A stretch of 64,000 nucleotides of DNA from an uncultured Verrucomicrobiae bacterium (GCA_963719495.1 CAVRCI010000013.1:640001-704000); one strand, 5' to 3'; numbered from the stretch's first letter, positions 12,105 to 63,132 are shown. Made by a program: numbers and translations. Notes: generated by a model from the sequence alone, not told the origin.

Positions 12105-12639
12105 GAAAGCATCATGGCATCATCCAAAGTGATGTCAATGCATCAAGTGATGTTTGAAGGGTTGAAGTGCTGAAAGATTGAGTGGTCAAGAGCGGAGGGT
12201 TTGCCTCCGGAGAAAATTCATTGTGACTGGTGACGGGTGACCAATAACCAATAACCAATAACTGTATCCCAGCCCTCCGCGCCTCAGCACCTCTGCGGGA
12301 TAAAAAGCATCAGCATTCAATACAGGAACTCGCGCAACCGAAGGCTCGGGAGAGCCGAAGATAGACGAAAAGCCCGAAGGGTGACCGAGCCGGGTTGCGA
12401 GGGAATCAAAGGCGCGGAGGCGCAAAGGTTGATACAAATGCGGATGAGAAAAAGCTGAAAGAAAAGAACAGGGGAAATCAAAGGAAGCTAAACTTTAAAA
12501 AGCGTCTCAGCGCGATCAAGCCCAGTCAGCTAAAATTTTCTCCCTACTAAGTAACTCCCACGGCCGCAACGGAACTCTTGGGACGATGGACGGCAAATCC
12601 CGGGCACGCTGAGTCACCTATTTCAATTTTCCACCAACC

Positions 12640-13158
12640 ATGCGTGACGAAACTGATCTCCGGAAGCTCGAGGCATTTCTCCGGGAGCTCGGGAATGCGG
12701 TGACGAGCCCGGGCCGGATCTATCTCACGGGTGGAGGAACCGCCGTGTTGCACGGTTGGCGAGGGATGACGATCGACGTTGCTTTGAAGGCCGACCCCGA
12801 GCCGAACGGACTCTTTGAGGCGATCGCGAGGCTGAAAGACAGTCTGAGTTTGAACGTCGAACTCGCTTCGCCGGAAGATTTCATTCCCCGGCTTCCGGGA
12901 TGGGAAGACCGAAGTCTTTTCATCGCGCGTCACAGGAAAATCGATTTGTTCCATTACGATCTGTATTCGCAAGCGCTGTCCAAGCTTGAGCGCTCCCACG
13001 CCCGGGACGAGCTGGACGTGAGGGCGATGGTTGATCGCGGCCTCGTTGACAAATCGCGTCTCTGGGAGTTGTTTGAAGTGATCGAGTCGGGTCTCCTGCG
13101 CTATCCTGCCGTTGACGGTGCCGGTTTCCGAACGCGCGTCGCTGATTTTTGCCGATGA
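12640..13158 (+). CDS. DUF6036-like nucleotidyltransferase
   Basis: IYLTGGGTAVLHGWR..TIDV, SQALSKLER. Confidence 0.7.
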   Translation: MRDETDLRKLEAFLRELGNAVTSPGRIYLTGGGTAVLHGWRGMTIDVALKADPEPNGLFEAIARLKDSLSLNVELASPEDFIPRLPGWEDRSLFIARHRKIDLFHYDLYSQALSKLERSHARDELDVRAMVDRGLVDKSRLWELFEVIESGLLRYPAVDGAGFRTRVADFCR

Positions 13159-13442
13159 TGATTCTGTCCGAAGATCTTGAGAGACTTCCTGGGTGGGATT
13201 TGATCCGCCCGGGCCTCGCCGACGCGAAGGCAGAGCGAGTCTCGCCGGAAGCCTGTCTGGTTTGGATCGCTGCTCCCCGGCTGCGCGCTGCCGGTTTATT
13301 GCCTGAGTCCAAGGTTCCGATCATCGATCCGGAGCGGACCCTTTATGGATTACTGCGCGCCCAAGGTGGGGATGCCTATCCGGCCTACCAAAGTCTGCTC
13401 CGTCGTCTATCGAAGTTCGTGCGCGCACTCGGGTCAGTGTGA
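13155..13442 (+). CDS. Small partner protein of the nucleotidyltransferase
   Basis: Coupled ORF (LPGWDLI..GL.D). Confidence 0.6.
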   Translation: MMILSEDLERLPGWDLIRPGLADAKAERVSPEACLVWIAAPRLRAAGLLPESKVPIIDPERTLYGLLRAQGGDAYPAYQSLLRRLSKFVRALGSV

Positions 13443-13938
13443 GTCTCGCGCGAGCCAAGCTCGCGAGACCGCCTGCAAGGCAACGTGCAAAGACGAGGAA
13501 AAAACCGCAGATCTAGGTTACTCTGGAAGGTTTTCCTCCCACCTAGCAGCAAACTACCCGACTATCTAACATCTTTTCCGCTCACCAGTCGCGGCCCGTA
13601 ACCCCAATTCGTCTCCTCCCATGAAAAAGACGGTCATCATTGCCTCCCGCTCGCCGCTCCCAAGTTCTCGTCTCTCGACTCACCAAAAGCATGAAATGTT
13701 CCCTCAGCGCCTCTGCGGGATAAAAAGCATCAGCATCAATACAGGAACTCGCGCAACCGAAGGCTCGGGAGAGCCGAAGATAGACGAAAAGCCCGAAGGG
13801 TGACCGAGCCGGGTTGCGAGGGAATCAAAGGCGCAGAGACGCAGAGAATGAAGATGCTGATGGGTTTCAAGCGGTACCAGCCCGAAGAGCTTCAGATCAG
13901 CTGTTTTCAACGCCGAGTGGCTGGTGGCTGGTGACGAG

Positions 13939-14028
13939 AGCATCGGCGCGGTGGGACCGCGCGAGACAGACTGCGTCGGCTCTGCGACGCAGCCCGCAGG
14001 GCGACATGAGCGGGAGCGAAGGAGTCAA
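13939..14028 (+). mobile_element. Structured mini-element (representative of about 14 copies)
   Basis: AGCA...GGGA-loop stem...GCTCTG-loop stem...GCCC-GNA-GGG...GAGTCAA; see findings. Confidence 0.7.
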
Positions 14029-14044
14029 TCGAGGGTCGAAGGCA

Positions 14045-14431
14045 ATGAATGAAATTCGATTTCGATTTGAGCGGCTGGACGCCTGGCAAATGGCCCGTCA
14101 GTTGAACCGTTCGATCTACCGACTGACCAAGACCTTTCCCAAAGACGAAATGTTTGCGCTCACATCTCAGCTGCGTCGGGCGTCCGTCTCGGTTAGTTCA
14201 AATATCGCGGAGGGATCAGGCCGCAACTCTGACAAAGACTTCGCGCACTTTCTCGAAATCGCTTACGGGTCGCTCATGGAAACGGTTTCCCAGTGTTTTC
14301 TCGCTCTCGATGAAGGATATTTAACGCAGAAAGACTTCGATTCGCTCGCGGGTGATGCAGACAAACTCGCGGGGAAGATCGTCGCGCTCTCCAAGTCACT
14401 CGGTCGTTCAGCCCGAATTCACCAGAAATAA
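14045..14431 (+). CDS. Four helix bundle protein (23S rRNA IVP-like)
   Basis: FERLDAWQ, FPKDEMFALTSQLRRASVSVSSNIAEGSGR. Confidence 0.92.
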   Translation: MNEIRFRFERLDAWQMARQLNRSIYRLTKTFPKDEMFALTSQLRRASVSVSSNIAEGSGRNSDKDFAHFLEIAYGSLMETVSQCFLALDEGYLTQKDFDSLAGDADKLAGKIVALSKSLGRSARIHQK

Positions 14432-14640
14432 GCCCTCGACTCTCGACGCTCGACTCCTCCGACCTCAGAAATAAGCCCTCGACTCTCGACGCTCGTCCCT
14501 CGACTCCTGCGACCTCAGAAATAAGCCCTCGACGCTCGACGCTCGTCCCTCGACTCCTCCGACCTCAGAAATAAGCCCTCGACTCTCGACGCTCGTCCCT
14601 CGACTCCTGCGACCTCAGAAATAAGCCCTCGATGCTCGTC
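14423..14640 (+). repeat. 50-bp tandem repeat (about 4.3 units) built from CTCGACN heptamers
   Basis: GACCTCAGAA recurs at 14461, 14511, 14561, 14611. Confidence 0.95.
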
Positions 14641-14691
14641 ATTTGCCCCCTGGCATTTCCATTCCCGGCCTCGCGTGCTAGATTCTCCCAG

Positions 14692-15009
14692 ATGAACCAT
14701 CTTCTCGAGAGCAAGCAGGTGGAGATCGTCGATGCGTGCGAGCAATTCGACGTTGAGAGACTTGCAGCATTCGGATCGGTCGTGAGGGACGATTTCCGAG
14801 CCGGTGCGAGTGATGTTGACTTTCTCGTTCGATTTCGAGCGCCCGGTGAACCGGGTTATTCAGACCGATATTTGGATTTTGCCGAGACGTTGGAGCGACA
14901 CTTGGGACATTCGGTCGATCTGTTGACCGAGAGATCCCTCCGGAACCCTTACCTCCGGCAAAGGATCACCGAGGAAGCCCAGGTCGTCTATGAATCGCAA
15001 AGTTCTTAA
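14692..15009 (+). CDS. MNT antitoxin
   Basis: FGSVVRDDF...SDVDFLV. Confidence 0.88.
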   Translation: MNHLLESKQVEIVDACEQFDVERLAAFGSVVRDDFRAGASDVDFLVRFRAPGEPGYSDRYLDFAETLERHLGHSVDLLTERSLRNPYLRQRITEEAQVVYESQSS

Positions 15010-15330
15010 GCGGCTGGAAGATGCCCGGGTGGCGTGCCTAAAAATCCAGAACTTCACCAATTGTCAGGATTTCGCAGCTTTCCAGAGCAGTGATTTAGTC
15101 CGGGCAGCCGTAGAGCGGCAACTAGAGATTATTGGGGAAGCGCTCGGCAAAGCCCTAGCTGACGCGCCCCAACTCGAGGAATCCATCCCAGAGATTCACC
15201 GGGCATCGGAATCCGTAATCGCCTGATTCACGGATACGACAGCGTAGATGATGAAATCGTCTGGGATGTGGTCAGGCTCAAACTAATCCCGTTTCTTGAC
15301 CGACTTGGACTCCTTCTGGATGGCAATTGA
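14990..15330 (+). pseudogene. DUF86/HepT toxin, frameshift near 15204
   Basis: AVERQLEIIGEA, then IGIRNRLIHGYD in another frame. Confidence 0.85.
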
Positions 15331-15566
15331 ACGAATGCCGACCGTTACCCGCTCGCCCGTAACTCATCGCCCTTCCCTCCGCGCCTCAGCGCCTCTGCGG
15401 GATAAAAGTATCAGTATCAATACAGGGACTCGCGCAGCTGCAACGGATGTGCAGCAACGGCCAGGCCAGCAACCCTAAAGCCGTAGAGGAAAGTTGGCTT
15501 CTAGTTTTCCCGGAGTTTCCCACCTTCCCCGTTGATCTTTCCAGAGAGAACCACGAAGTTTCGGTC

Positions 15567-15866
15567 ATGAGAGAAAACGGAGGGTTCCCTGTCGAGCGAC
15601 TGCGCTTGGCAGCCACCGGACTGCGGGATCAATATGGAATCAAGCAGCTTTCGGTATTTGGTTCCCGTCGACGTGGCGAAGGGCACGAGGAGAGCGATCT
15701 CGATCTGCTCGTGGAGTTCGACCGCCCGATCGGTCTGCTTGCCTTCAATCAGTTGGAATTCGAGCTGAGTGAACTCACGGGATGCCGGGTCGACCTGGTC
15801 ATGCGTTCGGCTCTCAAACCGAGCTTGGGAGCGAGGATTCTCGCGGACGCATTATCAATCTCGTGA
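15567..15866 (+). CDS. MNT antitoxin
   Basis: VFGSRRRGE...SDLDLLVEF. Confidence 0.88.
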   Translation: MRENGGFPVERLRLAATGLRDQYGIKQLSVFGSRRRGEGHEESDLDLLVEFDRPIGLLAFNQLEFELSELTGCRVDLVMRSALKPSLGARILADALSIS

Positions 15867-16210
15867 GGGGCAGGGTCCACCGAGACTCCTTGGAAGACAT
15901 TGTTGCGCACGCGAATCGAGCCGGAGACTTCATTGTCGGAATGGATTTCACCGCCTTCCGAGTTGACGAGAAAACCAACTTTGCGGTCGTTCGCTGCCTT
16001 GAAATCATCGGCGAAGCCTCGAAAAGAATCCCGGAGCAGATCCGGGCGCGCTATCCCGCTATCCCGTGGATAGCGATGGCCGGGATGCGCGATAAATCGA
16101 CTCACGATTATTTTGGTGTCGATTTGGAAGTCGTCTGGCACACGGTTGCCGTTGAGTTGCCTCCGTTGATCGTGGCAATGGAATCTGTCCTCGCCGACGA
16201 AATCTCCTGA
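15863..16210 (+). CDS. DUF86/HepT toxin
   Basis: LEIIGEA, GMRDKSTHDYFGVD. Confidence 0.88.
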   Translation: MRGRVHRDSLEDIVAHANRAGDFIVGMDFTAFRVDEKTNFAVVRCLEIIGEASKRIPEQIRARYPAIPWIAMAGMRDKSTHDYFGVDLEVVWHTVAVELPPLIVAMESVLADEIS

Positions 16211-16462
16211 CTCGTATTCAGTAACCCGTAACACACGGCTACTCCCTCAGCGGTTGCTGGCCTGGCCGTTGCTGCGCATCCGTTGCAGCTGCGGGATAAA
16301 AAGCATCGGTATCCATCCAGGAACTCGCGCGAGCCGAGCTTGCGAGACAGTCTGCAAGGCAACGCGCACAGGGTGCAGATGGTGATCGGTTTCCCTCGAG
16401 GCGAGCTGTTTCCACGGCTCGATACGCTCGACTTCCGAGGTGAATTGGCTTAGAAGTAACTT

Positions 16463-16783
16463 ATGCATCCGGCAATTCAGCAGATATTGCAGAAGCGATC
16501 GGGATCGGTTGCGAGCCTTTGTTCTAAGCTTTCGGTGGAAAGGCTGGGGCTCTTCGGATCGGCCTGCGGAGGGACATTCGACCCGAACGAAAGCGACTTG
16601 GATTTCCTGGTTGATTTTAAGAATGCCGATGGCCCGGGAATCGCGGACCGCTATCTCTCGCTGGTCGAAGGCCTGGAGAGCATTTTCGACCGAGAGGCGG
16701 ATGTGATCACGCGCCGATCAATCAGGAACCCCGTCTTTCGCCGGGTGACTGAGGAGACCGAGACGCTCCTGTATGAAGCGTGA
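16463..16783 (+). CDS. MNT antitoxin
   Basis: LFGSA...SDLDFLV. Confidence 0.88.
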   Translation: MHPAIQQILQKRSGSVASLCSKLSVERLGLFGSACGGTFDPNESDLDFLVDFKNADGPGIADRYLSLVEGLESIFDREADVITRRSIRNPVFRRVTEETETLLYEA

Positions 16784-17117
16784 AACTGAAAAGCTCTTGA
16801 TTGATATCCAGATCGCTCTGAGAGATTTGGAAGATTTCACGGCAGGAGTCGATTTAGCGGGATATCGAGCCGACGCCATGCGAAGAGCTGCCGTTGAGCG
16901 GAAATTCGAGATTGTCGGAGAGGCTTGCAATGGCTTGAAAGCCGAGGATTCTGGGACATTCGACAGGATTTCTTACGCGGTCCAGATCATTGGATTCCGC
17001 AACCGTTTGATCCACGGCTACGATTCGGTCGACGATGCGATCGTCTGGGACGTCATTCAAACCAGACTTCCTCTCCTCAAGGCGGAGGTCGGCGACTTGT
17101 TGGCGAGCGACGGGTGA
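16773..17117 (+). CDS. DUF86/HepT toxin
   Basis: AVERKFEIVGEA, FRNRLIHGYD. Confidence 0.9.
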   Translation: MKRETEKLLIDIQIALRDLEDFTAGVDLAGYRADAMRRAAVERKFEIVGEACNGLKAEDSGTFDRISYAVQIIGFRNRLIHGYDSVDDAIVWDVIQTRLPLLKAEVGDLLASDG

Positions 17118-17646
17118 GTAGCTAGTGGCTGGTGGCGCGTTGGATTTACCTCTCCAGCCGTAACCCACTACCCATAACTCACCGCCATTCCCTCAGCGCC
17201 TCCGCGGGATAAAAATATCGATACAGGGACTCGCGCAACCGAAGGCTCCGGAGAGCCGATGATAGACGAAAAGCCCGAAGGGTGACCGAGCCGGGTTGCG
17301 AGGGAATCAAAGACGCAGCGACGCAGAGAATGATACAAATGCGGATAAAGAAGCTGAATCTTAAAAAGAAACCCCTCCGCGTCTCTGCGGTTGCTGGCCT
17401 GGCCGTTGCTGCGCCTCCGCGCCTCTGCGGGAGAAATTCCGAATCATGCAACTGATAGGGTGAGGCTCGCGCCCAATCAGCACGGTCGCTTCCTCAATAA
17501 GAGCGAGTCGTTCGTCAACCAGAAGCGGCAACCGACGACCTCTGATTTACGATTTCCGAACCCCGACGAAGATCCCCAGGAAATCGATCCCGATCTCCGC
17601 TTACTTCGCGTTGCCAACAGGGAGCGTCCATCGTAGTTCTTTGAAT

Positions 17647-17946
17647 ATGCAGACCGTTGATTTTCAGGATCAATTCGCCGGTCCATGTCGGCGGCATCTG
17701 GTGAAACGATTGCAGCTCTTCGGATCAGTTTCGCGGGGACAGGGGACACCGGGGAGCGATTTGGACCTCCTGGTCCAGTTTCACGAAATGTCCGCCGCGG
17801 ATTACTCGAGTCATTATTTTGCTCTACTCCATGAGATCGAGGACAAATTGGACCGGCGCATTGACTTGCTGACACCCGCCGGGCTCAAGCGACGGTTGCT
17901 CAAGGATAATATCGAGAAAGAGGCGATTCTTTTGTATGAAGATTGA
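17647..17946 (+). CDS. MNT antitoxin
   Basis: LFGSVSRG...SDLDLLV. Confidence 0.85.
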   Translation: MQTVDFQDQFAGPCRRHLVKRLQLFGSVSRGQGTPGSDLDLLVQFHEMSAADYSSHYFALLHEIEDKLDRRIDLLTPAGLKRRLLKDNIEKEAILLYED

Positions 17947-18283
17947 AGTTCGCGAGGATCTCGAAGCGATCATCGAGCACGGGAGTCAAATCGAGGAGTT
18001 CGTCTCAGAACTGACCTTTGAGACGTAGGCGAATGATCCCAAGACTCGATTGGCGGTTGAACGAGCGTTTGAAATCATTGGGGAAGCCCTCAATCGAATT
18101 GCCAAATTGGAGCCTGAGGTTCTGGAACGCGTTACGGACCATCGGAAAATTATCTCATTTCGAAATATTCTCGCGCATTGCTATGACAGCATAGAAGACA
18201 AGATCGTCTGGGGAATCGTCGAGGACGCGCTGCCGCAGCTCATGGCCCAGGTCCGCTGCCTCCTTCCGAAAGGACCAGCCTGA
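17936..18283 (+). pseudogene. DUF86/HepT toxin with in-frame TAG at 18026
   Basis: MKIEVREDLE...T*ANDPKTRLAVERAFEIIGEA...FRNILAH. Confidence 0.85.
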
Positions 18284-18289
18284 CAGCCA

Positions 18290-18358
18290 CCGACATCCGA
18301 CATCTGACATCTGACATCTGACATCTGACATCTGACATCCAGCCACTGACCACCGACC
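18290..18358 (+). repeat. 7-mer array GACATCT
   Basis: About 7 near-perfect units plus a degenerate tail, ending at the next ATG. Confidence 0.92.
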
Positions 18359-18359
18359 A

Positions 18360-18752
18360 ATGAAAACCGCGATCGACCGATCATCTCGGATCCGGGAGAG
18401 AGTCCTCCGCGACCCGCGTTATCCGGTGAGTCGCATTGCGGATCGGTTGCTGCCCTATCTGCAGATTTTGGATGAGCGGTTTTCGCCCGTGCGAGTGGTT
18501 CTTTTTGGCTCCTATGCCTACGGCGAACCCGACGAACACAGCGACATCGATTTGCTCGTTGTTCTGGAAACGATCGTCGGGTCGATCGCTGTGAAAAAAA
18601 GCATTCTCCGCGCTTGGCGCGATTTGAGATGGAGCGGCCCGTCGCTTCCCATCGAACTCATCATCGTATCGAGGGATCGGCACGCGGAACGACTGCGCGA
18701 CAATGGAGCCTTCTATCGTACGATCAACGAGCGGGGACTCGCCATCCTGTGA
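18360..18752 (+). CDS. MNT nucleotidyltransferase
   Basis: VLFGSYAYG.P..SDIDLLV. Confidence 0.88.
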   Translation: MKTAIDRSSRIRERVLRDPRYPVSRIADRLLPYLQILDERFSPVRVVLFGSYAYGEPDEHSDIDLLVVLETIVGSIAVKKSILRAWRDLRWSGPSLPIELIIVSRDRHAERLRDNGAFYRTINERGLAIL

Positions 18753-19138
18753 AAACCGATGAATCCCGTTAGGAAGACTGGTCCTTTCTAGCCAGTGAGC
18801 GCCTGAAGGCCGCAGACGCACTCTGACAGTCCGTCGGGAAAAGCTTGAGCGGCGGCGAATTGCTCCAGGAATCGCTCGAGCGTTTTTTAAAGGGCTATCT
18901 GATCGCGCGGGGTTGGGAACTGCGCAAAATTCACAACCTTTCGACCCTACTCGATCACGCCGTCGAATTTGACCAGAGGTTTAAAGAATTCGCCGAACTT
19001 TGTGAGAGCTTAACGGCCCAGTTTTGGGCGCAGCACTATCCGGGAGATGACTTGGAAGAAGTTGGAGTCGACTACGACGAACTCCGTCAACTCGCCAGCG
19101 GGCTTATTGACCTGATCTCGGTATCGACAAAGTCTTGA
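18749..19138 (+). pseudogene. HEPN domain gene with stops at 18770 (TAG) and 18824 (TGA)
   Basis: LQESLERFLKGYL...KIHNL...YPG. Confidence 0.8.
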
Positions 19139-19493
19139 TCAACCGGCAAGCGTCTTTCGGATTCCAATCCACCGAACCACCCGCGACTCGTAAACGGAAA
19201 GTTGAAAGCAGAAAAAAATCGTGACGGCGCAGCCATGGACCAAAGAGATTTCGGCGGTCTGCACCACAGCCCGGCCCCGCCTTCGGTCCGCCGCGGCGCG
19301 CTACGAATCGAGATCGGATGCCTAACCTCATTCCCGGTGATTCGGCTCCACCTTCGACTGTTTCACTCCTTTGGCCCTCGACGCCGCAACGTGCCACGTC
19401 TGATGAACGCAGCCACGACCTCAAAACCAGCGAGCCGTTTCATTGATTGATTCCGTCCCAAATGTGGCGATATGAATCACCGACCCCTTTCCC

Positions 19494-19616
19494 GATGAAG
19501 GCTACCTAAACCAAGCTTAGTTTGACGCATTGACAATCAGCGCGGATAAGTTGGCAGGAAAGATCGCCGCGCTGTCGAAGTCTCTCGGCCGTTCAGCCCG
19601 AATTCACCAGAAATAA
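19494..19616 (+). pseudogene. 3' remnant of a four helix bundle gene
   Basis: DEGYL...ADKLAGKIAALSKSLGRSARIHQK*, paralog of 14045. Confidence 0.8.
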
Positions 19617-19901
19617 GCCCTCGACTCTCGACGCTCGTCACTCGTCATTGCCCTCGCCCCTCGCCCCTCGCCCCTCGACGCTCGACGCTCGTCACTCGAC
19701 TCGCCCGACCTCAGAAATAAGCCCTCGCCGTTGACTCCCGCTCGCCCGAGCGTGTCGCCCTACGGGCGGCGTAGCAGAGCCGACGCCGTCTACCCCGAGC
19801 CGCCCCCATCGGTCCGGTGTTCGTCCCTCGTCCCTCGACGCCCCCAACCTCAGAAATATGCCCTCGACGCTCGTCCCTCGCCCCTCGACTCCCCTATAAG
19901 C

Positions 19902-21174: not shown

Positions 21175-21244
21175 TTTTCTCAAATACTCGCTACTTTTTC
21201 CCGTTTCCAGCCACGCGCGTAGCACTCATACCCGCAGAATAATT

Positions 21245-21418: not shown

Positions 21419-21580
21419 CAAGAAGCAGAAATTTAGCTAGGGAGCTACGCGTCCCAGGCGTCTCGCCTTTTCGGCTACGTCGCAGAGCCGCCGTAGTCTG
21501 GCCTGCGGCATCCCTGCCGCCGGTGCTCTGATCTCCGACCGCTGACATCTGACCTCAGATCTCTTAACTCCCTCCCTCCC

Positions 21581-24266: not shown

Positions 24267-24279
24267 GTCATCCATTTCC

Positions 24280-40945: not shown

Positions 40946-41852
40946 GATTGACCGCGAATCGACGCGAATTGACGCTAAGGTCAGGAGGCAGCGGCGACAC
41001 GCTCGGTCAAGCGGGAGTCAATGGCGGGTGACGGGGAGTTTCCAATAACCAATAGCTATCAACCAATTATCACCTCCGCCAGAGCGCGTCGGGTCGGGGT
41101 CGGGCGGCATGAAAGGCCGGGTCGGGGTCGGTCATTCATATTGACACATTTGGAGCTGTCGGCATCGGAGGACCGGTGGATGGTCACTGGTGGCGGGGGC
41201 AGCGGAACTTCAGTAATTCGGTAGTTCAGAGTTCGGAGGTCAGTGGGTCTTGAGCACAGCGCCGGTGACAGGGCGGTCGCGGGAGCGACCGAGTCAACGA
41301 AGGAAACGAAGGGTGAGAGTTCGGTTTCTGAGAGATCCGGGAATGCGGCCTGATGCCTAATCGAGCGCAGGGGTGCCAGTTTCGTCTCGGTTTCTGTGAC
41401 GATTCAGCTTCTTCGCTTCCTTCGCTCCCTCCTGTTAAAGATCGCATTGATTTTGTTGCGGGTTTGCCAAGGCGTGATGGGTCTGGTCGCGCTCAGTTTT
41501 CTGAGTGCCAGTTTTAAATTTTTCCCTGGCTGCCGACTTGGCTCACCGCTTGGGCAGCTTCGGGACTGATGAAGTTGCCCGCGAAACACGCGAATCGACG
41601 CGGATGCGTGACTCGTGAAAACGCGATCAATAAAACCGATGGGGTCAAATACGTGCAGAAATCCGAAATCAGCAGCCGGGTTGAGACTCAGCGGACTGAG
41701 TCGGTCGGCCCGGCACTGGATTCGGTTGGTCGGTTGCCGGGAATGAGGATCGTTACGGGCGGCGCGAAGTTTGCTCAGATAAACTGCGTGAGTCTGGACG
41801 ACTCCCGATCCTAGTATGCGGCCCCGATCTCACGACCGGGGCCATTTTTATT

Positions 41853-43945: not shown

Positions 43946-44976
43946 AGCGTCGAGAGTCGAGAGCATTAGTCCCGTGGTGGCGGGACGAGGCAGACTGCAC
44001 CGGCTCTGCAGAGCAGCCCGCAGGGCAAGACGAGCGGGAGCGAGCGAGTCATGCGGTCGAGGGGTCGGTCATTCATATCGGCACATTTTAAGCCTTCGGT
44101 ATCGGATGACTGGTGAATGATCATTGGCGGCGGGGATGCAGACTTCAGCTTCTTCGTTCCCTTCGTTTTCTTCTGTAAAAATCGCATTGATGTTGTCGCG
44201 GGTTCGCCAAGTTGTGATCGGTCTGGTGGCGCTCAGTTTTCTGAGCGCCATTTTAGATTTTTTTCTGGCTGCCGACTTGGCTCACCGCTTGGGCAGCTTC
44301 GGGACTGATGAGGTTGCCAGCGAAACACGCGAATCGACGCAAATGCGTGACTCGTGAAAACGCGATCAATAAAACCGATGGGGTCAAATACGTGCAGAAA
44401 TCCGAAATCAGCAGCCGGGTTGAGACTCAGCGGACTGAGTCGGTCGGCCCGGCACTGGATTCGGTTGGTCGGTTGCCGGGAATGAGGATCGTTACGGGCG
44501 GCGCGAAGTTTGCTCAGATAAATTGCGTGAGTCCGGACGACTCCCGATCCTAGTATGCGGCCCCGATCTCACGACCGGGGCCATTTTTATTTTGCGAAAC
44601 AATCATTTGACCATTCTCGGGATCCGCTTCGACGTGGGCGGATCGGACCTCGTGGGATTGCTGCGCGCGGGAGGACTCGTCCAAGTGCCCTCGGGCCCTG
44701 GGCTGGCCGACGATTTATCGAACCTTTCCGCTTACCGGGACGCGTTGCTGGGCGCGGACTTCGTGATCCCGGACAGCGGGCTGATGGTCCTCGTCTGGAA
44801 TCGGTTCCTGCGTCGACCGGACCAGCCGAGACTGGAGCGTTACTCGGGGCTGAAACTCCTTCGCGATCTCCTGCCGGAGGCCGACGTGAAGCGGGCGGGG
44901 GCGTCGTTCTGGGTGATGCCGACGAAGGCGGAACAGGACCACAATCTGGCTTGGCTGCGAGGGCGGAGTCACGCGC

Positions 44977-46463: not shown

Positions 46464-47281
46464 GGGCGGAGTCACGCGCTAACCGACGACGATTGCTACT
46501 TGGCTCCTCATTACCGCGACCGTCTGGGACCGGACGGCGGGGTGACGGATGCGGAGTTGCTGGCGATGATCGAGCGTCGGAGGCCGGCCTACGTGTTCGT
46601 GAATGTCGGGAGCGGGGTGCAGGAACAGCTGGGCTGGTATCTGCGGAAGAACCTGTCTTACAAACCGGCCATTCTTTGCACGGGCGCGGCCATCGCGTTT
46701 CTCACCGGCGGTCAGGCCCCGATCCCGCCGTGGGCGGACCGGTTTTATCTCGGGTGGTTGCTGCGGGTGATGCGGAATCCGGCTCGCTTCGGGTCGCGGT
46801 ATCTGAGCGCGTTCAAGCTAGTGCCGTTGATGCTGAAGTATCGGGAGCGGCTGCCGCCGTTGAGGGGCGCAGCGGAGTTGCGGTGACGAGCTTCGGGAAT
46901 GCAAATACGGTTTTTGAACATAGCACCGGAGCCGCGGGACGGCTCGGGGCAGACTGCGCCGGTTCTGCGGTGCAGCCCGAAGGGTGAGACGAACAGGCGT
47001 GAGCGAATCAACGTCGCAAAGGTCACAAAGGGATACAGGGGTGGCTAGTGACGCGTGGCGCGTTGGATCTGACCCGTCACCGGCTATTCGTAACCCGCAA
47101 CTCATCGCCATTCCTCCGCGTCTCGGCGCGAGATGACTTCCTCTCAACTCTCAACTGGGGCGACCGGGTCCGAGAGCGGTATTTCCAATCACCAACAACT
47201 ACCAACCAATAACTTTGGGGAGGTCGGTGGACCGCTTTTCCTGAGTTTGACATCTGGATCTGGCTGTGGGAATTTCCCACG

Positions 47282-52346: not shown

Positions 52347-52820
52347 CAAGGCCGGCGAAGTTGCAGCTTGGTTGGCAAAATCCCAACGTGATCTCGAGGC
52401 GGCGCGACTGCTGGCGAGCGCCGAGTCACCAAAGCGGGACGTCGCTGTTTACCATTGTCAGCAATCGGCCGAGCATCGGCGGCAGGGATGGCGCGGGGCA
52501 GACTGCGCCGGCTCTGCGGTGCAGCCCGCAGGGCGACATGAGCGGGAGCGAAGGAGTCAAAAACGGAGCTTGGGATCGCCCGGGACATTCCCTTTGTGAA
52601 GACGCATGATCTTGAGCGGCTTTTGAAGATGGATGGCGAGACTGACGGGTTGGACTTTCTGGCTGAAGCCGCCAGGCTACTGACACCCTGTGCGACCGAA
52701 TTTCGATACCCCGGAGATGCCTTCGAACCGGAGTCATCCGAGTGTGATGAGGCTATTGCAACGGCAGCTGGAATTATCGAACAGGTAGTCGAGATGGTCG
52801 ATGGGTTGAGTGGCAAGTGA
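52336..52820 (+). pseudogene. HEPN duplicate disrupted by a mini-element (52472-52560)
   Basis: Comparison with 43310. Confidence 0.85.
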
Positions 52821-52894
52821 CGGAGGTCGGAAGGCGACGTTGCGACCGGTAGTATCTGCGCAAATCCGCGCTATCTGTGGTGGGTCTGTAGTCA

Positions 52895-54940: not shown

Positions 54941-55035
54941 ATCAGTAGATCAGTAGATCTTCTGCGTGCGTTCCGCCTCGTTGCGGTTGAAGATGCGAAT
55001 CCCCGGTGCCTGCGCCCGGGGATATTTTTTTGATT

Positions 55036-55829: not shown

Positions 55830-56063
55830 CGAGCTTCGGGAATGCGAATACGGTTTTTGAACAGAAGATAGCAAAGGTCACAAAGGGATACAGGGGTGGC
55901 TAGTGACGCGTGGCGAGTGGCTGGTGGCTGGTGACGGGCAGCTCCGCTGCAGTGGCTGGTGGCTGGTGGCGCGTTGGATTTGCCCCGCTACCCGTGACTC
56001 GGAACTGACGGCGCCGGAGGCGGGGTTTCCAATAACTCGGGGTCGAGGGCTTTGGCCTGCTGG

Positions 56064-56495
56064 TTACCAGGTCAGCAGCGAGAGGCCGTCGACGCGGTCA
56101 AAGTGGCTGTCGCGTTGGGCCAGCGGCATGGAGCATTCGAGGGCGACGGCTGCGATCCAGATGTCGTTTTCGGGGATGGGCGTTCCGCGGGACTCGAGCG
56201 TGGCGGCGATCTGAGCATCGGCGTGCTGGGAGCGCGCGAGGCAGCCTTGAGCGTAGCGAAAGCCCGGAGGGCGACACGAGCGGGAGCGAGGGAGGCAACG
56301 TCGGTCTGTAGAAATTTCGAGCTGCGCTTTGGTCTTCTCGGGAACGCTGGATTTGAGGACGCCTTTGTAGAGCTCGCCCAAGGCGGTGAGCGGCAGGAAG
56401 AGCGGCTCGGCCGGAGGAGCTTTCTCGGCGAGGTTAATCCGGCCGCGTAGGTGCTCGATGACGACGCTGGTGTCGAGCAGGATGCCCTGGAGCAT
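56064..56495 (-). pseudogene. VapC PIN toxin disrupted by a mini-element (56214-56298)
   Basis: ILLDTSVV...GTPIPENDIWIAA...RDSHF. Confidence 0.85.
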
Positions 56496-56731
56496 TACGA
56501 TTCGAGGCGGCGGCCACCGAGCATCGCGGCCTCGAAGGAGTGTCCGTCTTGTTCGGTGAGGACTCCGTGAGTCTGACGAAGAAGCGCCTGACGGTTTTTC
56601 TGGTCGGCCTCGCTGAGGCCGTGGACGTAGCGGGCCACCTCGACGAGTTTGGGCGTCGGCAGACTTTGGAGGTCTTTCAGGATGGATTCGATCACGTTCA
56701 CAGAAATTAATTGTAGCATTGGAAGCAGCAA
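56495..56731 (-). CDS. Putative antitoxin (start uncertain)
   Basis: Coupled upstream of VapC. Confidence 0.6.
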   Translation of the reverse strand: MLLPMLQLISVNVIESILKDLQSLPTPKLVEVARYVHGLSEADQKNRQALLRQTHGVLTEQDGHSFEAAMLGGRRLES

Positions 56732-56742
56732 AGGCGAGTGGC

Positions 56743-56805
56743 GAGTTGCAGTTCACGCTTTAAGAGGCCCTGCGCGATTGGTGGACCGATTGCGGGGAGA
56801 AGGGG
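56743..56805 (+). pseudogene. Epimerase 3' remnant
   Basis: ELQFTL*EALRDWWTDCGEKG matches the end of 52895-53913. Confidence 0.75.
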
Positions 56806-57140
56806 TGTTGGCGTGAATGGTGAATGGTCAATTGTGAATGGTGGGGTAAGCACCGGAGCCGTGGGACGGCTCGGGGCAGACTGGAGCAAAGCGACGGCCC
56901 GCAGGGCGACATAATGGAGCCGGAGGGTGTCGAGCGACATAGCCTGCCGCGAGGCAGCCCGAAGGGCCGAACTGCGGGAGCAGCGCGGGCAACCGGGAGC
57001 GAAGGAGTCAATCGAGTGTTTACAATAACCATCAACTATCAACCAATAACCAGTGGCTGGTAGCGCCCGGAGATCCCCAGTGGGTCGCAAGCGTAATTTT
57101 CCAGGTTGATCAGTTCTTTCAATGGATCTATAGAAATCTA

Positions 57141-57395
57141 ATGAAAGCTACGTATTCCGTTTCCCAGGCGCAGGCGGCACTTCCGCGCATCTTGAAGGAA
57201 GCAGAAGATGGTCTCATCGCGGTCAGCCGTCGCGATGTGACGGTGGCTTTCGTCGTTTCCCGCGATCGGATGGAGGCGATATTGGAAACAATGGAAATCC
57301 TGGCCAATCCGACGGCCATGAAACAGATTGAAGATTTCGAAGCAGGAAAGTTGAGTTTTCGCGATTTTTCCGCTCTCGATGACTTGGACGAATGA
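57141..57395 (+). CDS. Phd/YefM antitoxin
   Basis: YSVSQAQAALP, ETMEILANP. Confidence 0.85.
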   Translation: MKATYSVSQAQAALPRILKEAEDGLIAVSRRDVTVAFVVSRDRMEAILETMEILANPTAMKQIEDFEAGKLSFRDFSALDDLDE

Positions 57396-57667
57396 TTCGT
57401 CTTTCACGTCAGGTCGAAGATTTCGTTCGATGTCTCGCGCCAGTTCCGCGCCGCAAACTGAGATTGGCGATTCGCGATCTTGGTGAGAAATCCGCGGACG
57501 TGAAAAGCCTCGAGGACCGTCTCTCTGGTTTTCAGCGACTGCGGTGTGGCAGCTATCGGGTGATCTTTGCAACGCGAGTCGTCGACGGTATCCCGGTCCA
57601 TCATTGCCTCTTTGCAGAACATCGTTCGATTGTTTACGAGGCATTTGAACGAATGATGGGAGAGTGA
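57392..57667 (+). CDS. RelE/ParE toxin
   Basis: DVKSLE..LSGF.RLRCGSYRVIF. Confidence 0.85.
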   Translation: MIRLSRQVEDFVRCLAPVPRRKLRLAIRDLGEKSADVKSLEDRLSGFQRLRCGSYRVIFATRVVDGIPVHHCLFAEHRSIVYEAFERMMGE

Positions 57668-58042
57668 GGTTTGGGGAAAGCAGCTCTGCTACGGAGGCTG
57701 GTGGCGCGTTGGATTTGCCCCGCTACCCGCTACCCATGACTCGTAACCCGCTACCCGCATCTTATCGCCATTCCCTCTGCGTCCCTGCGACTCTGCGGGA
57801 TAAAAGCATCAATACAGGAACTCGCGCGGAGGCGCAGAGACGCAGAGGATGATATAAATGCGGATGAGGAAGAACTGCGGGAATATGAATACGGTTTTTG
57901 AACATAAGATCGCAAAGTTCGCGAAGAGATGCAGAGGGGGATTTCTGAGGTTGCAAGCCTTCCTTCCCGCAACGGCAACAGGACCGAACCGGGATCATCG
58001 GTTTGACTGTCAGCCGCGACTGTTCCAGATTATCCAAAAACG

Positions 58043-58294
58043 ATGAAGACGAAATTCACTTTTTGGCAAGAGGCTGACGGAAAATATTTGGGATACTTGA
58101 ATGACTATCCAGATCACTGGACTCAGGGCGACGACATGCAGGATCTAAGAGAACAGCTCGTTGATCTCTTTTCGACTTTCTCTTCCGAGAGCTTGCCCGG
58201 GATTCGAAGCTCGAGATCGCTTGAAACGCCGGGATTTGATCACAAACATCGAAGCGGCTGGCTGCCTTCTTTTACGGCACGGTTCCCGCCATGA
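58043..58294 (+). CDS. hicB: HicB-like antitoxin, C-terminus probably frameshifted
   Basis: LGYLNDYPDHWTQG..L; reads through into hicA. Confidence 0.65.
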   Translation: MKTKFTFWQEADGKYLGYLNDYPDHWTQGDDMQDLREQLVDLFSTFSSESLPGIRSSRSLETPGFDHKHRSGWLPSFTARFPP

Positions 58295-58403
58295 TATTTA
58301 TCACAACCCAGCGACAGGGGTATCTCAGCCGGTTCCACGTCACCGAGAAATCAATGAGATCCTTGCAAAGAAGATCATCAGAGATCTGACGAAATTTGAG
58401 TAG
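58221..58403 (+). CDS. hicA: HicA toxin
   Basis: MKRRDLI...RHGSRHDIY...VPRHREI. Confidence 0.85.
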   Translation: MKRRDLITNIEAAGCLLLRHGSRHDIYHNPATGVSQPVPRHREINEILAKKIIRDLTKFE

Positions 58404-59001
58404 TGAATCCAATCGAACCGTTGCTTCCTTAAAAAAATTCCCTCCGCGTCTCAGCGCCTTTGCATCGAGGGGTCGGTCATTCATATTGAAACATTTGGAG
58501 CTATCGGCATCGGATGACTGGTGAATGATCATTGAGTGGCGGGGATGCAGACTTCAGCTTCTTTGCTTCCTTCGCTGTCTTCTGTTAAAGATCGCATTGA
58601 TTTTGTCGCGGGTTTGCCAAGTTGTGATCGGTTTGGTCGTGCTCAGTTTTCCGAGCGTCATTTTTAATTTTTGCCTGGCTGCCGACTTGGCTCACCGCGT
58701 GGGCAGCTTCGGGACTGGTGAGGTTGCCAGCGAAACACGCGAATCGACGCGGATGCGTGACTCGTGAAAACGCGATCGATTGAACCGATGGGGTCAAATA
58801 CGTGCAGAAATCCGAAATCAGCAGCCGGGTTGAGACTCAGCGGACTGAGTCGGTCGGCCCGGCACTGGATTCGGTTGGTCGGTTGCCGGGAATGAGAATC
58901 GTTACGGGCGGCGCGAAGTTTGATCAGATAAACTGCGTGAGTCCGGACGACTCCCGATCCTTGTATGCGGCCCCGATCTCACGACCGGGGCCATTTTTAT
59001 T

Positions 59002-59793
59002 TTGCGAAACAATCATTTGACCATTCTCGGGATCCGCTTCGACGTGGGCGGATCGGACCTCGTGGGATCGCTGCGCGCGGGAGGACTCGTCCAAGTGCCC
59101 TCGGGCCCTGGGCTGGCCGACGATTTATCGAACCTTTCCGCTTGCCGGGATGCGTTGCTGGGCGCGGACTTCGTGATCCCGGACAGCGGGTTGATGGTCC
59201 TCGCCTGGAATCGGTTCCTGCGTCGACCGGACCAGCCGAGACTGGAGCGTTACTCGGGGCTGAAACTCCTTCGCGATCTCCTGCCGGAGGCCGACGTGAA
59301 GCGGGCGGGGGCGTCGTTCTGGGTGATGCCGACGAACGCGGAACAGGAGCACAATCTGGCTTGGCTGCGAGGACGGAGTCACGCGCTAACCGAGGAGGAC
59401 TGTTACCTGGCGCCCCTTGTATCGTGACCGATTGAAGCCGACGGTGGGGTGGAAGATGCGGAGTTGCTTGCGGTGATCGAGCGTCGGAGGCCGGTCTGCA
59501 TCTTCGTGAATGTCGGGAGCGGGGTGCAGGAACAGCTGGGCTGGTATCTGCGGAAGAACCTGTCTTACAAACCGGCGATCCTTTGCACGGGTGCGGCGAT
59601 CGCGTTTCTCACCGGTGGGCAGGCCCCGATCCCGCCGTGGGCGGATCGGTACTATCTCGGGTGGTTGCTGCGAATTCCGAGGGACCCGAAGCGCTTCGGG
59701 CGACGGTATCTGAATGCGTTCAAGCTCGTGCCGCTGCTGGTTAAGTATCGAGAGCGGCTGCCGCCGCTGAGGGGCGCAGCGGAGTTGCGGTGA
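59002..59793 (+). pseudogene. WecB/TagA copy, frameshifted near 59415-59450
   Basis: 5' half like 41853, 3' half like 55036. Confidence 0.85.
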
Positions 59794-60405
59794 CGAGCTT
59801 CGGGAATGCGAATACGGTTTTTGAACAGAAGGTAGCAAAGGTCACAAAGGGATCCAGGGGTGGCTAGTGACGCGTGGCGCGTTGGATCTGACCCGTCACC
59901 GGCTACTCGTAACCCGCAACTCATCGCCATTCCTCCGCGTCTCGGCGCGAGATGACTTCCTCTCAACTCTCAACTGGGGCGACCGGGTCCGAGAGCGGTA
60001 TTTCCAATAACCAATAAATACCAACTATGAACTGGGACCGAAGATCGCAAAGGCGGGAGAGTTTGCTCTTCCGCCTTTTTTGTGCCGGGATGGCGGTTGG
60101 TGGGGCTGGGACGGCGTTGGGTTGGTTGATGGATGGATAGGCGGCGCGTCGGGAGGAGGCGACGGCGGGTTTGGCAAAACCGCCCTACCAATTGGGAAGA
60201 TGGGACCGTTTGCCAAACGGTCCGTGGCTGGGGTCAGCTCCGCTTCCCTCTTTCCTCTTCCCTCGAATTCCAGTCGACCAATAACCATCAACCGCGTGCG
60301 CAGCGCGCAGATCCTGTCCGGTCGGTAATTGTTGCGAAAGATAGTAGTCGAAAGGTCCGGGAGGAGGCGCTACCGTCCTCTCGTTGAAACTGATACGGTT
60401 GTGCG

Positions 60406-60804
60406 ATGGAATCCGTTTGGGGAACTGACTCCGATTTACGAAGAGGCGAGGAAGCAATCGCAGGCCGGGACGGAGGCGGAGATCGATGCGGATTGGATTT
60501 CGAACAAGCGATCCGAGAATGGCTCGACTACGCGGCGCGGACCGGACACCTACGTATTACCGGCAAGCGGAAATTTGCTTCGGATCTAGAACTCATCGAA
60601 ACAATGGAGGCGGAGGCCGAAAGCCTCTTCCAATTCGCCCGGGCAATCGGTCTCGATTTGTCCGAATCACTCGATGAAATCATTCACCGAACTCTCCCGA
60701 TCCGTACTGGGAATGAACACCGGGTCTACCGCGCGACGGTGGCGGGAAGGCGGCGCTTCATTAAGATCACCCATGCGGGCAAGTATACCGGATCAACAGG
60801 ATGA
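60406..60804 (+). pseudogene. Truncated kinase paralog of 39943
   Basis: SDLELIETM.AEA, GNEHRVYRA, IKITHAGKY, then ends. Confidence 0.7.
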
Positions 60805-61074
60805 CTCGGAGGGTCTTACGAGGCTTCACTCGGTTACCCGGCGAGTGAATTGGGTTTCCGTTCGGAGGTTCTAGAATTCAATCCTCTCAATCCTCTCGAT
60901 CTTGTCAATTGCCTTTCAGGCTGTCTCCGCTGCGCTCCGGCTCTGTCCACCCCGGATTTAGGATAACGAACAATCATCAACCACGAACCAGAATCATTAT
61001 CTCGGTTTCCGAGATAGCGAGACCGACGGGTTCAGATCCAATATCCGAGGTTCTCGGCCTTGCACGCCTGATTT

Positions 61075-61540
61075 ATGCGTATCTACATCGAGACAACGAT
61101 TCCGAGCTACTTGACCGCCAACAGGGCCCGCGAAGTCGTCCAAATTGCTCTCCAACAGACAACGAAGGACTGGTGGTAGACCGAACGAGAGAAACACGGT
61201 TTGGATACTTCCTTGATCACTCTTCAGGAAGCGGGCGGTGGGGATTCTGAGGCTGCTCAACGCAGACTTGGTAGTTCTCAAGGGGATTCCGCTATTGGAG
61301 ATCACGCCTGAGGTCGAAGGAATGACATCTTCAATTGTGGATTCAAGGATATTGCCGCCCACAGCCGAGCGTGACGCTGCCGACGTCGCTGTTGCTACCT
61401 ACCATGAACTGGATATTATCCTGACTTGGGACTGTCGTCACATTGCCAACGCAACCATCCGTAAGCCTCTACAGAAGTTGATCGAATCGCTCGGCTACGA
61501 GCTTCCAATTATTTGCACGCCAGAGGAACTAATCTCATGA
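61075..61540 (+). pseudogene. PIN domain gene (TAG at 61177, frameshift near 61270)
   Basis: IYIETTIPSYL...LTWDCRHIAN...ICTPEEL. Confidence 0.8.
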
Positions 61541-61779
61541 TCACCCAGGACTTCCCGTCAATTGCAGACGAGACAATGAAAGAAGTGTGGGAAATTAAGG
61601 ATTCTCTTTCACGAAGGTATAATCATGACGTTGGTTTACTTTTCAAGGGTCTGTACACAGAGCAGGCCTCCGACAGTGAGAACACGGTCAATTTGAAACG
61701 GAAAAATGCGGCCCAACGAAGTGCTGCATCTCGCGCAGAGGCGCAGGCGCGGAGGGGGTGGCTGGTGACGGGTAGCTGA
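61537..61779 (+). CDS. Small partner protein of PIN gene
   Basis: DETMKEVWEIKD.LS..Y.HD; 4-bp overlap. Confidence 0.6.
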   Translation: MITQDFPSIADETMKEVWEIKDSLSRRYNHDVGLLFKGLYTEQASDSENTVNLKRKNAAQRSAASRAEAQARRGWLVTGS

Positions 61780-61840
61780 TAACCCGTGACTCTTGGCTCG
61801 TGACTCGCCTTCGCCACCGCAGCGGAGTTGCCTCGCGCTC

Positions 61841-62122
61841 TCACTCCTGGAGGCGCGATTGAAACACTTCGTAGACCCACCTCCGACTTTCGAGGAAGAC
61901 ACAGGTGATGGTGCGCGTTCCTTCAATGAAATCATACTGAAAGATCACCCGATAGCTGCCGACTCGACGGCGAAAGTAACCGTCGAGTTCGTCAACTAGC
62001 GGTCTGATGTCTCCTCGTTCTTCGCTCAGGCCTTTGATCGCCAATCGGATGGCGTGCCTTGGTTTGGGTGGGAGGCGACGGAGAGTCTCGAGCACGTCCT
62101 GCTGAACTCGGATCCTGATCAT
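61841..62122 (-). CDS. RelE/ParE toxin
   Basis: GDIRPL..LDGYFRRRVGSYRVIF; paralog of 57392. Confidence 0.85.
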   Translation of the reverse strand: MIRIRVQQDVLETLRRLPPKPRHAIRLAIKGLSEERGDIRPLVDELDGYFRRRVGSYRVIFQYDFIEGTRTITCVFLESRRWVYEVFQSRLQE

Positions 62123-62367
62123 ATGTCATCGAGGGCGGAGACGTCGTGGTAAATGGCCTGACCGGCTTCGTGAGCGCGAATCGCGGTCATGGCTGCGGGA
62201 CTACTCAGGATTTCCATTGTCTCAGAAATGGCCTCCATTCGGTCGATCGAGATCAGAACCGCGACCGCTTTTCCTTGGTTGGTGATGGTGACCGGGTGAT
62301 CCAACGACTCTTTGACGACGGCGGAAAAACGCTGTTGGGCAGTTTTGATGGTGTAGGAATCGGCCAT
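62119..62367 (-). CDS. Phd/YefM antitoxin
   Basis: YTIKTAQQRFS, VTITNQGK, ETMEILSSP. Confidence 0.85.
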   Translation of the reverse strand: MADSYTIKTAQQRFSAVVKESLDHPVTITNQGKAVAVLISIDRMEAISETMEILSSPAAMTAIRAHEAGQAIYHDVSALDDI

Positions 62368-62612
62368 GACACAAAATTACACCCTTTTCTCTGGAAAAGG
62401 GTGATGAAATTCTCGATTCAACTTTTAGAGTTTCCGAGTTTTTAGGTTCTGAGCATCGAGCCGCGGGAGCGGCTGAGGCAGACTGCGTCGTCGAAGGGTC
62501 GTCGAAGACTCGGTCATTCGTATTGACGCATTTTGAGCTTTCGACGTCGGATGATCGTTGGTGGCGGGAATGCGAAATCCGGGTTCTTCGCTCCCTTCTG
62601 TCGAAGATCGCA

Positions 62613-63020
62613 TTGATTTTGTCGCGGGTTTGCCAAGTTGTGACCGGTCCGGTGGCGCTCAGTTTTCTGAGCGCCATTTTTTATTTTTCCCTGCGGGCTG
62701 CGCCGCATCTTGGGGAGATTGCCTGGCTGCCGGTTTAGCTCACCGCGTGGGCGGTTTCTCGCTCGGGTGAAGATTTACGGACGGCAGTGCCGTTTCTGCT
62801 GCTCGATGAGACGACGGGGCTGTTGTCGCGGTCCGGGCGGCGCGTGATCGTTTCAGCGGTGGTGCTCGTTGCCTTGGTGGTCCTGATCGAAGGCGCGCAG
62901 TATTTTGTTCCCGGTCGCACGGCGTCGAACCACGACGTAGGATGGGGGTCGCTTGGCGGATCGTCTGATTGTCTCTTGGGTGTTTGCTGCGGAAACTTGG
63001 CGGGCGCGTTTATCCGTTGA
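62613..63020 (+). pseudogene. Full-length VanZ family gene with TAG at 62736 (5' fragments at about 41447, 44187, 58597)
   Basis: LRTAVPF...IEGAQYFVPGRTAS..DVGWG. Confidence 0.7.
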
Positions 63021-63132
63021 GGACGAGCGAAGTTTAGCCGCAAGCACCGGAGTCGTGGGACGGCTCGGGGCAGACTGCATTGGCTCTGCAATGCAGCCCG
63101 CAGGGCGAGACGAGCGGGAGCGAGCGAGTCAA

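Follow-up and report, generated by a model that had tools for sequence, protein, structure and literature searches.

In this study, we examined a family of small structured DNA elements in a stretch of 64,000 nucleotides from an uncultured Verrucomicrobiae bacterium (GCA_963719495.1 CAVRCI010000013.1:640001-704000; the whole stretch is referred to as the window) and conclude that the element is very probably mobile and corresponds, in free-standing form, to the core of the E. coli tRNA-linked repeats (TLRs). It is 72–95 bases in size, with a typical length of 87 bases for its type A, and encodes no protein. A preliminary description of the window had proposed a non-autonomous element, mobilised by an HUH enzyme or a reverse transcriptase (RT), or alternatively a structured non-coding RNA. 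We could substantiate the non-autonomous mobile element, as identical copies lie in unrelated flanks, 17 of 20 sites taken from congeners are empty in the host genome, copies are nested in one another and genes are disrupted.

The copy number in the genome compared with a decoy establishes that the family is real. In the host genome (G000; 4.54 Mb, 98.6% complete), an nhmmer profile built from genome copies gave 80 matches at E<0.01, compared with a single match (E=2) in the reversed genome, and 79 matches were obtained with a covariance model, R1, trained on 33 copies of which 7 came from the window and 26 from other loci. Searched without filters, the window returned nine R1 matches at E≤1e-6, seven of them members of the training set, followed by the short type B copies at 12334, 13753 and 17235 (E 0.002–0.003), a half copy at 62453 (E 0.006) and a remnant at 41253 (E 0.27). 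The subfamily is present in 58 of 141 genomes of the host order, with 0 of 16 in one family, in 4 of 141 genomes of a phylum sample, and in records labelled Chthoniobacterales, Terrimicrobiaceae and Spartobacteria. A pattern scan of species genomes gave at least 98 stretches, mostly from Gammaproteobacteria and Verrucomicrobiota, some of which are probably chance matches; phage and plasmid collections contained no blastn match to the element, and viral contigs no pattern match. In genome G063, 25 of the 74 matches were examined (L218–L242); all of them ride in the same young repeat, which has a fixed end with TA behind it and is probably an insertion sequence (IS). In genome G043 (L142, L193, L194), copies of two different subtypes face each other at a distance of 32 bp, as convergent inverted doublets within a larger dispersed repeat.

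Type A folds into a hairpin P1 (positions 1–27), a single A and a four-helix junction of P0, P2, P3 and P4. P0 is a closing helix of two base-pairs (G29:C86 and A30:T85), P2 pairs 31–38 with 45–52, P3 is the invariant hairpin CCC-GNA-GGG, and P4 starts with C62:G84 and continues through a tandem GA and further pairs to a GGGA loop. No base is left unpaired at the branch of the type A junction. Type B copies (12337, 13756 and 17238) keep P0, P3 and P4 with a minimal P2. The preliminary description had omitted the third stem and the 2-bp closing helix, which make the four-way junction; its AGCA and its stem with a GCTCTG loop apply to type A, and type B has neither.

The covarying stems and compensatory changes noted earlier hold both in the 41 distinct 87-mers of the genome, where the pairs with the highest mutual information are complementary, and in the 33-sequence alignment, where 92.9% of cells are paired and 22 of 28 pairs carry double-sided changes. 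The covariation score of 0.383 exceeds the 0.132 of shuffled alignments, none of 500 of which reached it, and the maximum of 0.057 obtained with slid partners; the latter control is lenient because the structure was read off the same sequences. Among 127 copies parsed from 155 motif matches at all loci, with a motif pattern that permitted every pair combination, 105 have A-T and 18 have C-G as the inner pair of P0, while 67 close P4 with C-G and 53 with T-A. When 72 distinct matches from across the phyla are fitted to the model, the resulting alignment is 94.8% paired. One of the tandem GA pairs in P4 is replaced by a Watson-Crick pair in 8 of the 41 copies. Non-Watson-Crick cells, read on the strand that carries GNA, are G-T in 29 cases vs A-C in 8, and therefore it is this strand that carries the fold. 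In 86 copies from across the phyla, 42 of 83 P2 loops are GNA triloops, and UNCG occurs in 0 of 165 P2 and P4 loops; this absence, together with the G-T/A-C bias, disfavours UNCG loops of the opposite strand as the true motif. Passages of PMC13037366 describe GCGNAGC and GCGNNAGC mini-hairpins as far more stable in DNA than in RNA, and further state that such DNA mini-hairpins exclude or poorly bind SSB and are found at single-stranded DNA (ssDNA) priming sites.

Strong covariation would also be expected if the copies were structured non-coding or cis-regulatory RNAs kept by the host, and PMC8144298 reports processing as well as Hfq and CsrA binding for some of the TLR-class RNAs in E. coli, though these are members located in rRNA operons. 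Orientation to genes is mixed, however, as 41 of 58 clusters share the strand of the upstream gene and 37 of 58 that of the downstream gene; genes are disrupted by copies, the set of copies changes from one congener to another, and an Rfam search of the window gave no match at gathering or E-value thresholds. Judged from the DNA-type loops and the mixed orientation to neighbouring genes, the structured RNA of the preliminary description thus appears disfavoured, and we regard a host-maintained RNA as highly improbable.

Movement is visible from the comparison of sites. From 39 congener loci, 21 clusters could be placed in the host genome by both flanks, with spacers too diverged for a joint reading, and among the 20 distinct sites that they represent, three are filled and 17 empty. 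Within the genome, three identical 87-mers occupy two different 9-mer classes on three contigs, and copies in general reside in heptamer arrays, in two kinds of 9-mer array, in the P1 loop of the element itself, in head-to-tail arrays and in genes. The empty site at 55860, previously set against the filled site at 46922, was confirmed, and a second one was found at 59760. Insertions in VapC, HEPN, vanZ, the element's own loop and tRNA loops have only a GA(G/A) microhomology in common.

At the 5' joint, the base preceding the element is A in 60 of 60 full-length copies, and the preceding dinucleotide is GA in 55 of them. Neither target duplications nor terminal inverted repeats were present in these 60 junctions, in line with what had been described before. 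The 3' side follows a different pattern: among 67 distinct 3' flanks, 40 start with AC, 18 with AT, 4 with TT and none with G. The heads of 9-mers read AG in 65 and AC in 1 of 75 empty sites, while independent filled sites read AC in 4 of 4 (p=3e-6), and in the second 9-mer class the first base is A in 5 of 5 filled vs 2 of 25 empty sites (p=1.5e-4). A host array that continues in register beyond the element is hence altered at its 3' joint. In four heptamer sites the host T is kept, which rules out a fixed TCAA right end, and in at least 4 heptamer sites the last A of TCAA is derived from the host. Stub-like element starts are enriched in non-tandem AC flanks (10/36, p=0.011). Tandem units of element plus flank also occur; with respect to a circle-junction origin of the tandem arrays, we observed that tandem joints read A and host joints read G.

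DNA loss is confined to the 3' side of the element. In the VapC-like gene at 56064–56495 (minus strand), interrupted by a type A variant at 56215..56297 (+), comparison with an intact ortholog in genome G003 revealed that the element and four further bases stand in place of 43 host bases, whereas the 5' flank is unchanged save one synonymous base. The disrupted gene still reads open over 144 codons, the frame being restored by a deletion of 2 bases that lies 13 bases downstream. The HEPN gene at 52336–52836, compared with its paralog at 43454, is interrupted by a type A element at 52473..52559 (+), an insertion also present in congener G001; at the deletion joint, the first 16 bases of a second copy (52560–52575, +) come directly after it as a stub, and then host sequence resumes. 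Paralog and ortholog together confirm the replacement of host bases that had been suggested for both genes. The join of vanZ to the middle of an epimerase gene, located earlier at 63043, was likewise verified: here a type A element at 63044..63131 (+) links a vanZ fragment to the epimerase gene, and the 8 following bases (63132–63139) match both the element start and the epimerase at the joint.

The relation to TLRs emerged from R1, which was trained on the host order only. In 2.2 kb of the E. coli tyrT operon, it picks up each of the four repeat cores on the strand of the tRNA genes, at E-values from 4e-4 to 3e-3, the next best match having E 3.9. In K-12, the core motif occurs at 10 sites, compared with 0 in the reversed control; all 10 lie in tRNA operons, each running into a tRNA 3' end, and 7 fall under gathering hits of the Rfam family RtT (RF00391), which together with the 178-bp tyrT repeats is counted among the TLRs. 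In Gammaproteobacteria, the core is located at GTTCGA^ATCC in duplicated T-loop fragments of tRNAs. Woeseiaceae-type genomes (L031, L036, L038, L085 and L098) carry the element in the anticodon loop of a duplicated fragment of tRNA-Ser(CGA) at TTCGA^AATC, an insertion motif identical to that of the T-loop. Of 20 gammaproteobacterial loci scanned, 4 have an RtT match below threshold that coincides with the element and one more has such a match close by, and relatives from the pattern scan score 25–38 bits on RF00391, under its threshold of 45. The window family and TLR/RtT share a stem, the CCC-GNA-GGG hairpin, a Y-GA...GA-R stem and the same covarying closing pair.

They differ in that the window family has a longer P1 and a fully paired P0, does not reach the RtT model, and is dispersed in short-period repeats, genes and copies of itself with no link to tRNA. 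RF00391 gave 0 matches in the window and none in the genome at E≤10; the nearest tRNA gene lies 2,099 bp from any of the 58 clusters, rRNA operons being left unexamined; and a tRNA 3' end serves as 3' flank in 0 of 60 full-length copies, while it is present in E. coli and the gammaproteobacterial relatives. TLRs are defined in PMC8144298 as lying in a tRNA or rRNA operon downstream of a gene, with their last 18–19 bp equal to the 3' end of the upstream tRNA. Since no tRNA lies within 2 kb and RF00391 has no match, the window copies are not TLRs by definition; by sequence comparison, they represent the TLR core without the tRNA. The term "undescribed" can consequently be retained insofar as the window copies miss Rfam RtT, and has to be given up for the core, which is that of E. 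coli TLR/RtT. PMC8144298 further counts 22 TLR copies in E. coli, without known function, states that neither function nor origin has been assigned since 1978, and does not use the word "mobile" in its main text; an excerpt of bioRxiv 2024.07.17.603846 gives the mode of action of rttR as unknown. In the literature covered, with Rudd 1999, Elhai 2008 and supplements outside this coverage, we found no paper on the TLR core as a mobile element or on the four-way fold. The present genome contributes a large population that stands free of tRNA genes, the interpretation of the fold as a four-way junction, a rule for the joints backed by a truly empty ortholog, and negative results for candidate movers.

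Comparable properties are known from other small repeats. The small dispersed repeats SDR1-8 of Nostocaceae, reportedly described by Elhai et al. in 2008, are said to be structured, to measure 21–27 bases, to lack terminal inverted repeats and target duplications and to insert in heptamer repeats and in their own copies, and an RNA route has reportedly been proposed for them. As far as this description goes, our element resembles SDRs in being tiny and structured, in its lack of terminal repeats and duplications and in its insertion in heptamer repeats and in itself, and differs by its 72–95 bases with a four-way junction. SDR5 and HIP1 are treated in parts of PMC5861425. With REP/REPIN-RAYT systems and the ends of IS200/IS605, the family has in common that it is non-autonomous, multi-copy, mostly intergenic and hairpin-based and makes no target duplication. 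The element 3' end plus the next base usually reads TCAA, like the right cleavage site of IS608 given in PMC3201880, and a GA/TC partner that covaries with this end lies where the stems begin. In a test of guide pairing over 193 parsed copies, two positions covary (GA with TC, GC with GC) and the fourth does not. Unlike REP and IS200, the element has no fixed GTAG-type guide, conserves only GA at the target and loses DNA on insertion. REPs are defined in PMC6006769 by a short hairpin whose 5' foot carries the tetranucleotide GTAG or GTGG, and such a foot is absent from our consensus and from the 41 distinct 87-mers. Inverted doublets, a trait of REPINs, are absent from the host genome, where neighbours are head-to-tail or nested; inverted pairs occur in G043.

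On balance, we lean towards a model in which the element moves by an ssDNA route, non-autonomously and with an enzyme acting in trans. The functional form would be a folded single DNA strand, namely the GNA strand, and the enzyme, capable of nicking and strand transfer, would recognise the four-way junction. The donor would be cut at the 5' end, which would be joined to the target 3' end after GA, while the donor 3' end would be freed together with a few bases of its flank as a tail, to be closed by flap repair or microhomology repair of the host. Such sealing of the tail could produce the overwritten bases, stubs and one-sided deletions, and duplication of element plus flank would give rise to the tandem units here and to tRNA-linked repeats elsewhere.

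No candidate gene for the mover passed a test. The genome contains 12 Y1 matches, 9 four-helix-bundle genes, 4 GxxExxY and 5 IS110. No Y1 gene is flanked by copies, the 8 best of the 12 matches lying at least 14.7 kb from any copy, and IS110 was dismissed as none of its five copies resides within 18 kb of an element. At L129 (G000:C13:356865), a 169-aa IS200-like Y1 gene has its own repeated hairpin ends with CCC-GNA-GGG, the rest of the element being absent. Four-helix-bundle genes do not represent a complete form of the element, since only 2 of 9 are within 200 bp of a copy and the other 7 at a distance of at least 17 kb, and since the high-copy genomes G001, G043 and G063 have none; for the two such genes beside copies, it is their heptamer arms that are the targets. 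GxxExxY, GIY-YIG, Y1 and RT genes do not track the element across genomes, with four-helix-bundle, GxxExxY and GIY-YIG genes being common with or without it. In the 22 genomes with at least 10 R1 matches, RT is found in 8 and Y1 in 17, so that 5 are without Y1, and 3 have neither. It should be noted that tracking by copy number provides no proof of absence, as kin are not independent and passengers inflate counts, and that counts from high-copy genomes are weak evidence because the element rides in a larger repeat in G043 and G063. A search for IS91-type Y2 gave 0 of 5 genomes, with the control likewise giving no match. An autonomous partner was not apparent either: no recurring mobile-type neighbour was seen among 1,077 open reading frames (ORFs) near copies, and none in the 93 of 108 neighbouring ORFs scanned with Pfam. 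By analogy, an HUH-type (Y1) enzyme, as considered in the preliminary description, would still be the most likely class of mover, an assignment that we make tentatively and consider doubtful in itself.

A different route would run through RNA, as has reportedly been proposed for cyanobacterial SDRs: a transcript of the element would be converted to DNA by an RT at a nick in the target, and the 3' joint would be settled as a flap; a precise primed joint next to a flap-resolved one would fit target-primed synthesis. Relatives in E. coli are transcribed according to PMC8144298. However, there is no PF00078 match in the host genome, nor in 14 of the 22 high-copy genomes, the template would be the strand with the less conserved fold, and the loops are of DNA type. 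The RT mobilisation envisaged in the preliminary description is thereby not supported, in the host by the 0 matches and elsewhere by RT in only 8 of 22 genomes, and we consider an RNA route very unlikely.

Alternatively, no dedicated transposase may be involved at all, the fold mimicking a Holliday junction or priming site that is handled by core host enzymes such as a resolvase, a tyrosine recombinase, primase or a polymerase switching templates. The type A four-way junction without an unpaired branch base would suit this possibility, as would a family that spans phyla and tracks none of five candidate families, the ssDNA priming sites marked by mini-hairpins in the cited passages of PMC13037366, and 3' overwriting and deletions that resemble repair. 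On the other hand, the spread is patchy (4/141 in the phylum sample, 0/16 in one family) though the phylum shares its core enzymes, and the copy-number comparisons are confounded by hitchhiking and incomplete assemblies. Handling by host enzymes therefore appears unlikely to us, and the same holds for its bolder form, an 87-base ssDNA mimic of a Holliday junction that would spread across phyla without a transposase, through host enzymes or as catalytic DNA.

The orientation of the copies was considered as a further indication of the strand involved. The GNA strand is the G-rich strand in 53 of 58 clusters of the host genome and in 28 of 30 congener loci, and the orientation along the G-rich strand of the host array, as claimed earlier, was found in the four array-embedded copies inspected. 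The backgrounds of the target arrays are equally biased, with 24/25 vs 0.96, 10/10 vs 0.83, 4/6 vs 0.76 and 4/4 vs 0.68, and after this control a lagging-strand bias was dropped as evidence. Genome-wide, 207 of 216 heptamer arrays of the TGGTGA class (in the window at 13915–13938, 21528–21560 and 56812–56840) are on the G-rich, leading-sense strand, a bias of which part may be base composition and part array origin. At about position 24000 of the window (G000:C13:664000), the cumulative GC skew of the contig reaches its minimum, which marks a candidate origin of replication.

Several observations weigh against movement by an ssDNA route with an enzyme in trans. Since the element bias matches the target bias, there is no independent sign of lagging-strand transposition. 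No mobilising gene is adjacent to the copies or tracks copy number in the genomes compared, and 3 of the 22 high-copy genomes are without RT and Y1 matches. Single-sequence folding z-scores are weak (-2.7 to +1.2), and single-sequence energies do not separate DNA from RNA; E. coli copies are transcribed as RNA, as reported in PMC8144298. HUH transposons such as IS608 insert 3' of a fixed tetra- or pentanucleotide without DNA loss, as stated in the excerpt of PMC3201880, whereas here bases are overwritten or deleted at the target and no such fixed sequence exists. The apparent overwriting at the 3' joint could instead be a choice of rare target variants. Finally, similar copies share their flank class above chance (15/26 pairs, permutation p about 0.016), which points to, or at least leaves room for, some flank-guided copying, and in the two high-copy genomes G043 and G063 the element sits inside a larger repeat or IS.

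These last two findings would be explained by passive spread, that is, gene conversion among 7- and 9-mer repeats combined with riding in larger repeats or IS, the fold being a relic or serving a host role, and the tandem units of element plus flank and a strand bias equal to that of the host arrays are consistent with it as well. Conversion among repeats does not account, however, for identical copies in different repeat classes, nor for the insertions in VapC, HEPN, vanZ, the element's own loop and tRNA loops with their minimal microhomology, and conversion alone would not select the compensatory changes ongoing within one genome. We therefore judge a purely passive spread improbable, and retain the ssDNA route as our working model.

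In the window, all of the about 14 places named in the preliminary description carry the element or a remnant of it. The places were correctly located, except that those at 12334, 13753 and 17235 belong to the separate type B, with the short P2 and the same junction core, and truly start at 12337, 13756 and 17238, three bases later, because empty sites at 57773 and in L005 show it. These plus-strand copies (12337..12408, at the head of a 9-mer array, 13756..13827 and 17238..17309) are each supported by empty sites and R1. Full-length type A elements are found at 13940..14027 (+), in a heptamer array 17 bp ahead of the four-helix-bundle gene at 14045–14431, at 19732..19820 (minus strand), an A-start variant in a heptamer array, and at 43963..44051 (+), detected by R1; a further type A element at 46923..47010 (+) occupies a 9-mer array head, with its paralogous empty sites at 55860 and 59760. 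Three of the places listed are incomplete: 41253 is a 43-base remnant (41254..41296, +) with both ends kept and the interior deleted, weak in R1 at E=0.27; the copy given as 21447–21527 has no 3' end (21453..21526, minus strand) and lies behind a truncated four-helix-bundle gene; and at 62452 only the 5' half of a type A copy is left, its 3' part being deleted (62453..62490, +). Beyond that list, additional remnants were detected at about 40994–41020 (+), where P4 and the 3' end are left (R1 E=0.4, weak), and at 56937–56992, the latter being a second four-way-junction module enclosed by the outer type A ends of a nested composite at 56850..57010 (+).

The window as a whole represents a polysaccharide and exosortase locus rich in toxin-antitoxin modules and four-helix-bundle genes. 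At 7564–22126 and 42964–62367, MNT-HEPN, VapBC, HicA and Phd modules and four-helix-bundle genes have inverted arms of 7- and 9-mers on each side, a layout that resembles a cassette array, with no integrase seen. A second repeat family of the GGGGTCGGTCAT-type, at 39145, 41123, 44063, 58465 and 62502, is often located beside elements or deletion joints, and inverted motifs similar to GGGGTCGGTCAT-type repeats flank long Y1 transposase genes. A repeat of 1,490 bp (44977–46466 and 50231–51720, 99.9% identity) is probably an insertion sequence, its ORFs being without Pfam match.

In this genome, the TLR core presents itself as a free insertion element that is active: its young copies number in the dozens, its ends are defined and its two joints follow an asymmetric rule. 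This makes the question of the origin of TLRs testable, both with regard to an enzyme for the four-way junction and to whether DNA is the moving form. If no transposase were required, few self-propagating DNA elements would be as small as this one, and this would explain the TLRs known since 1978. As a minimal tool for insertion, an enzyme able to join a short ssDNA to a GA site would be of interest. For the organism, the element breaks toxin-antitoxin and polysaccharide genes and is accompanied by one-sided deletions, and it therefore helps to reshape surface-polysaccharide loci.

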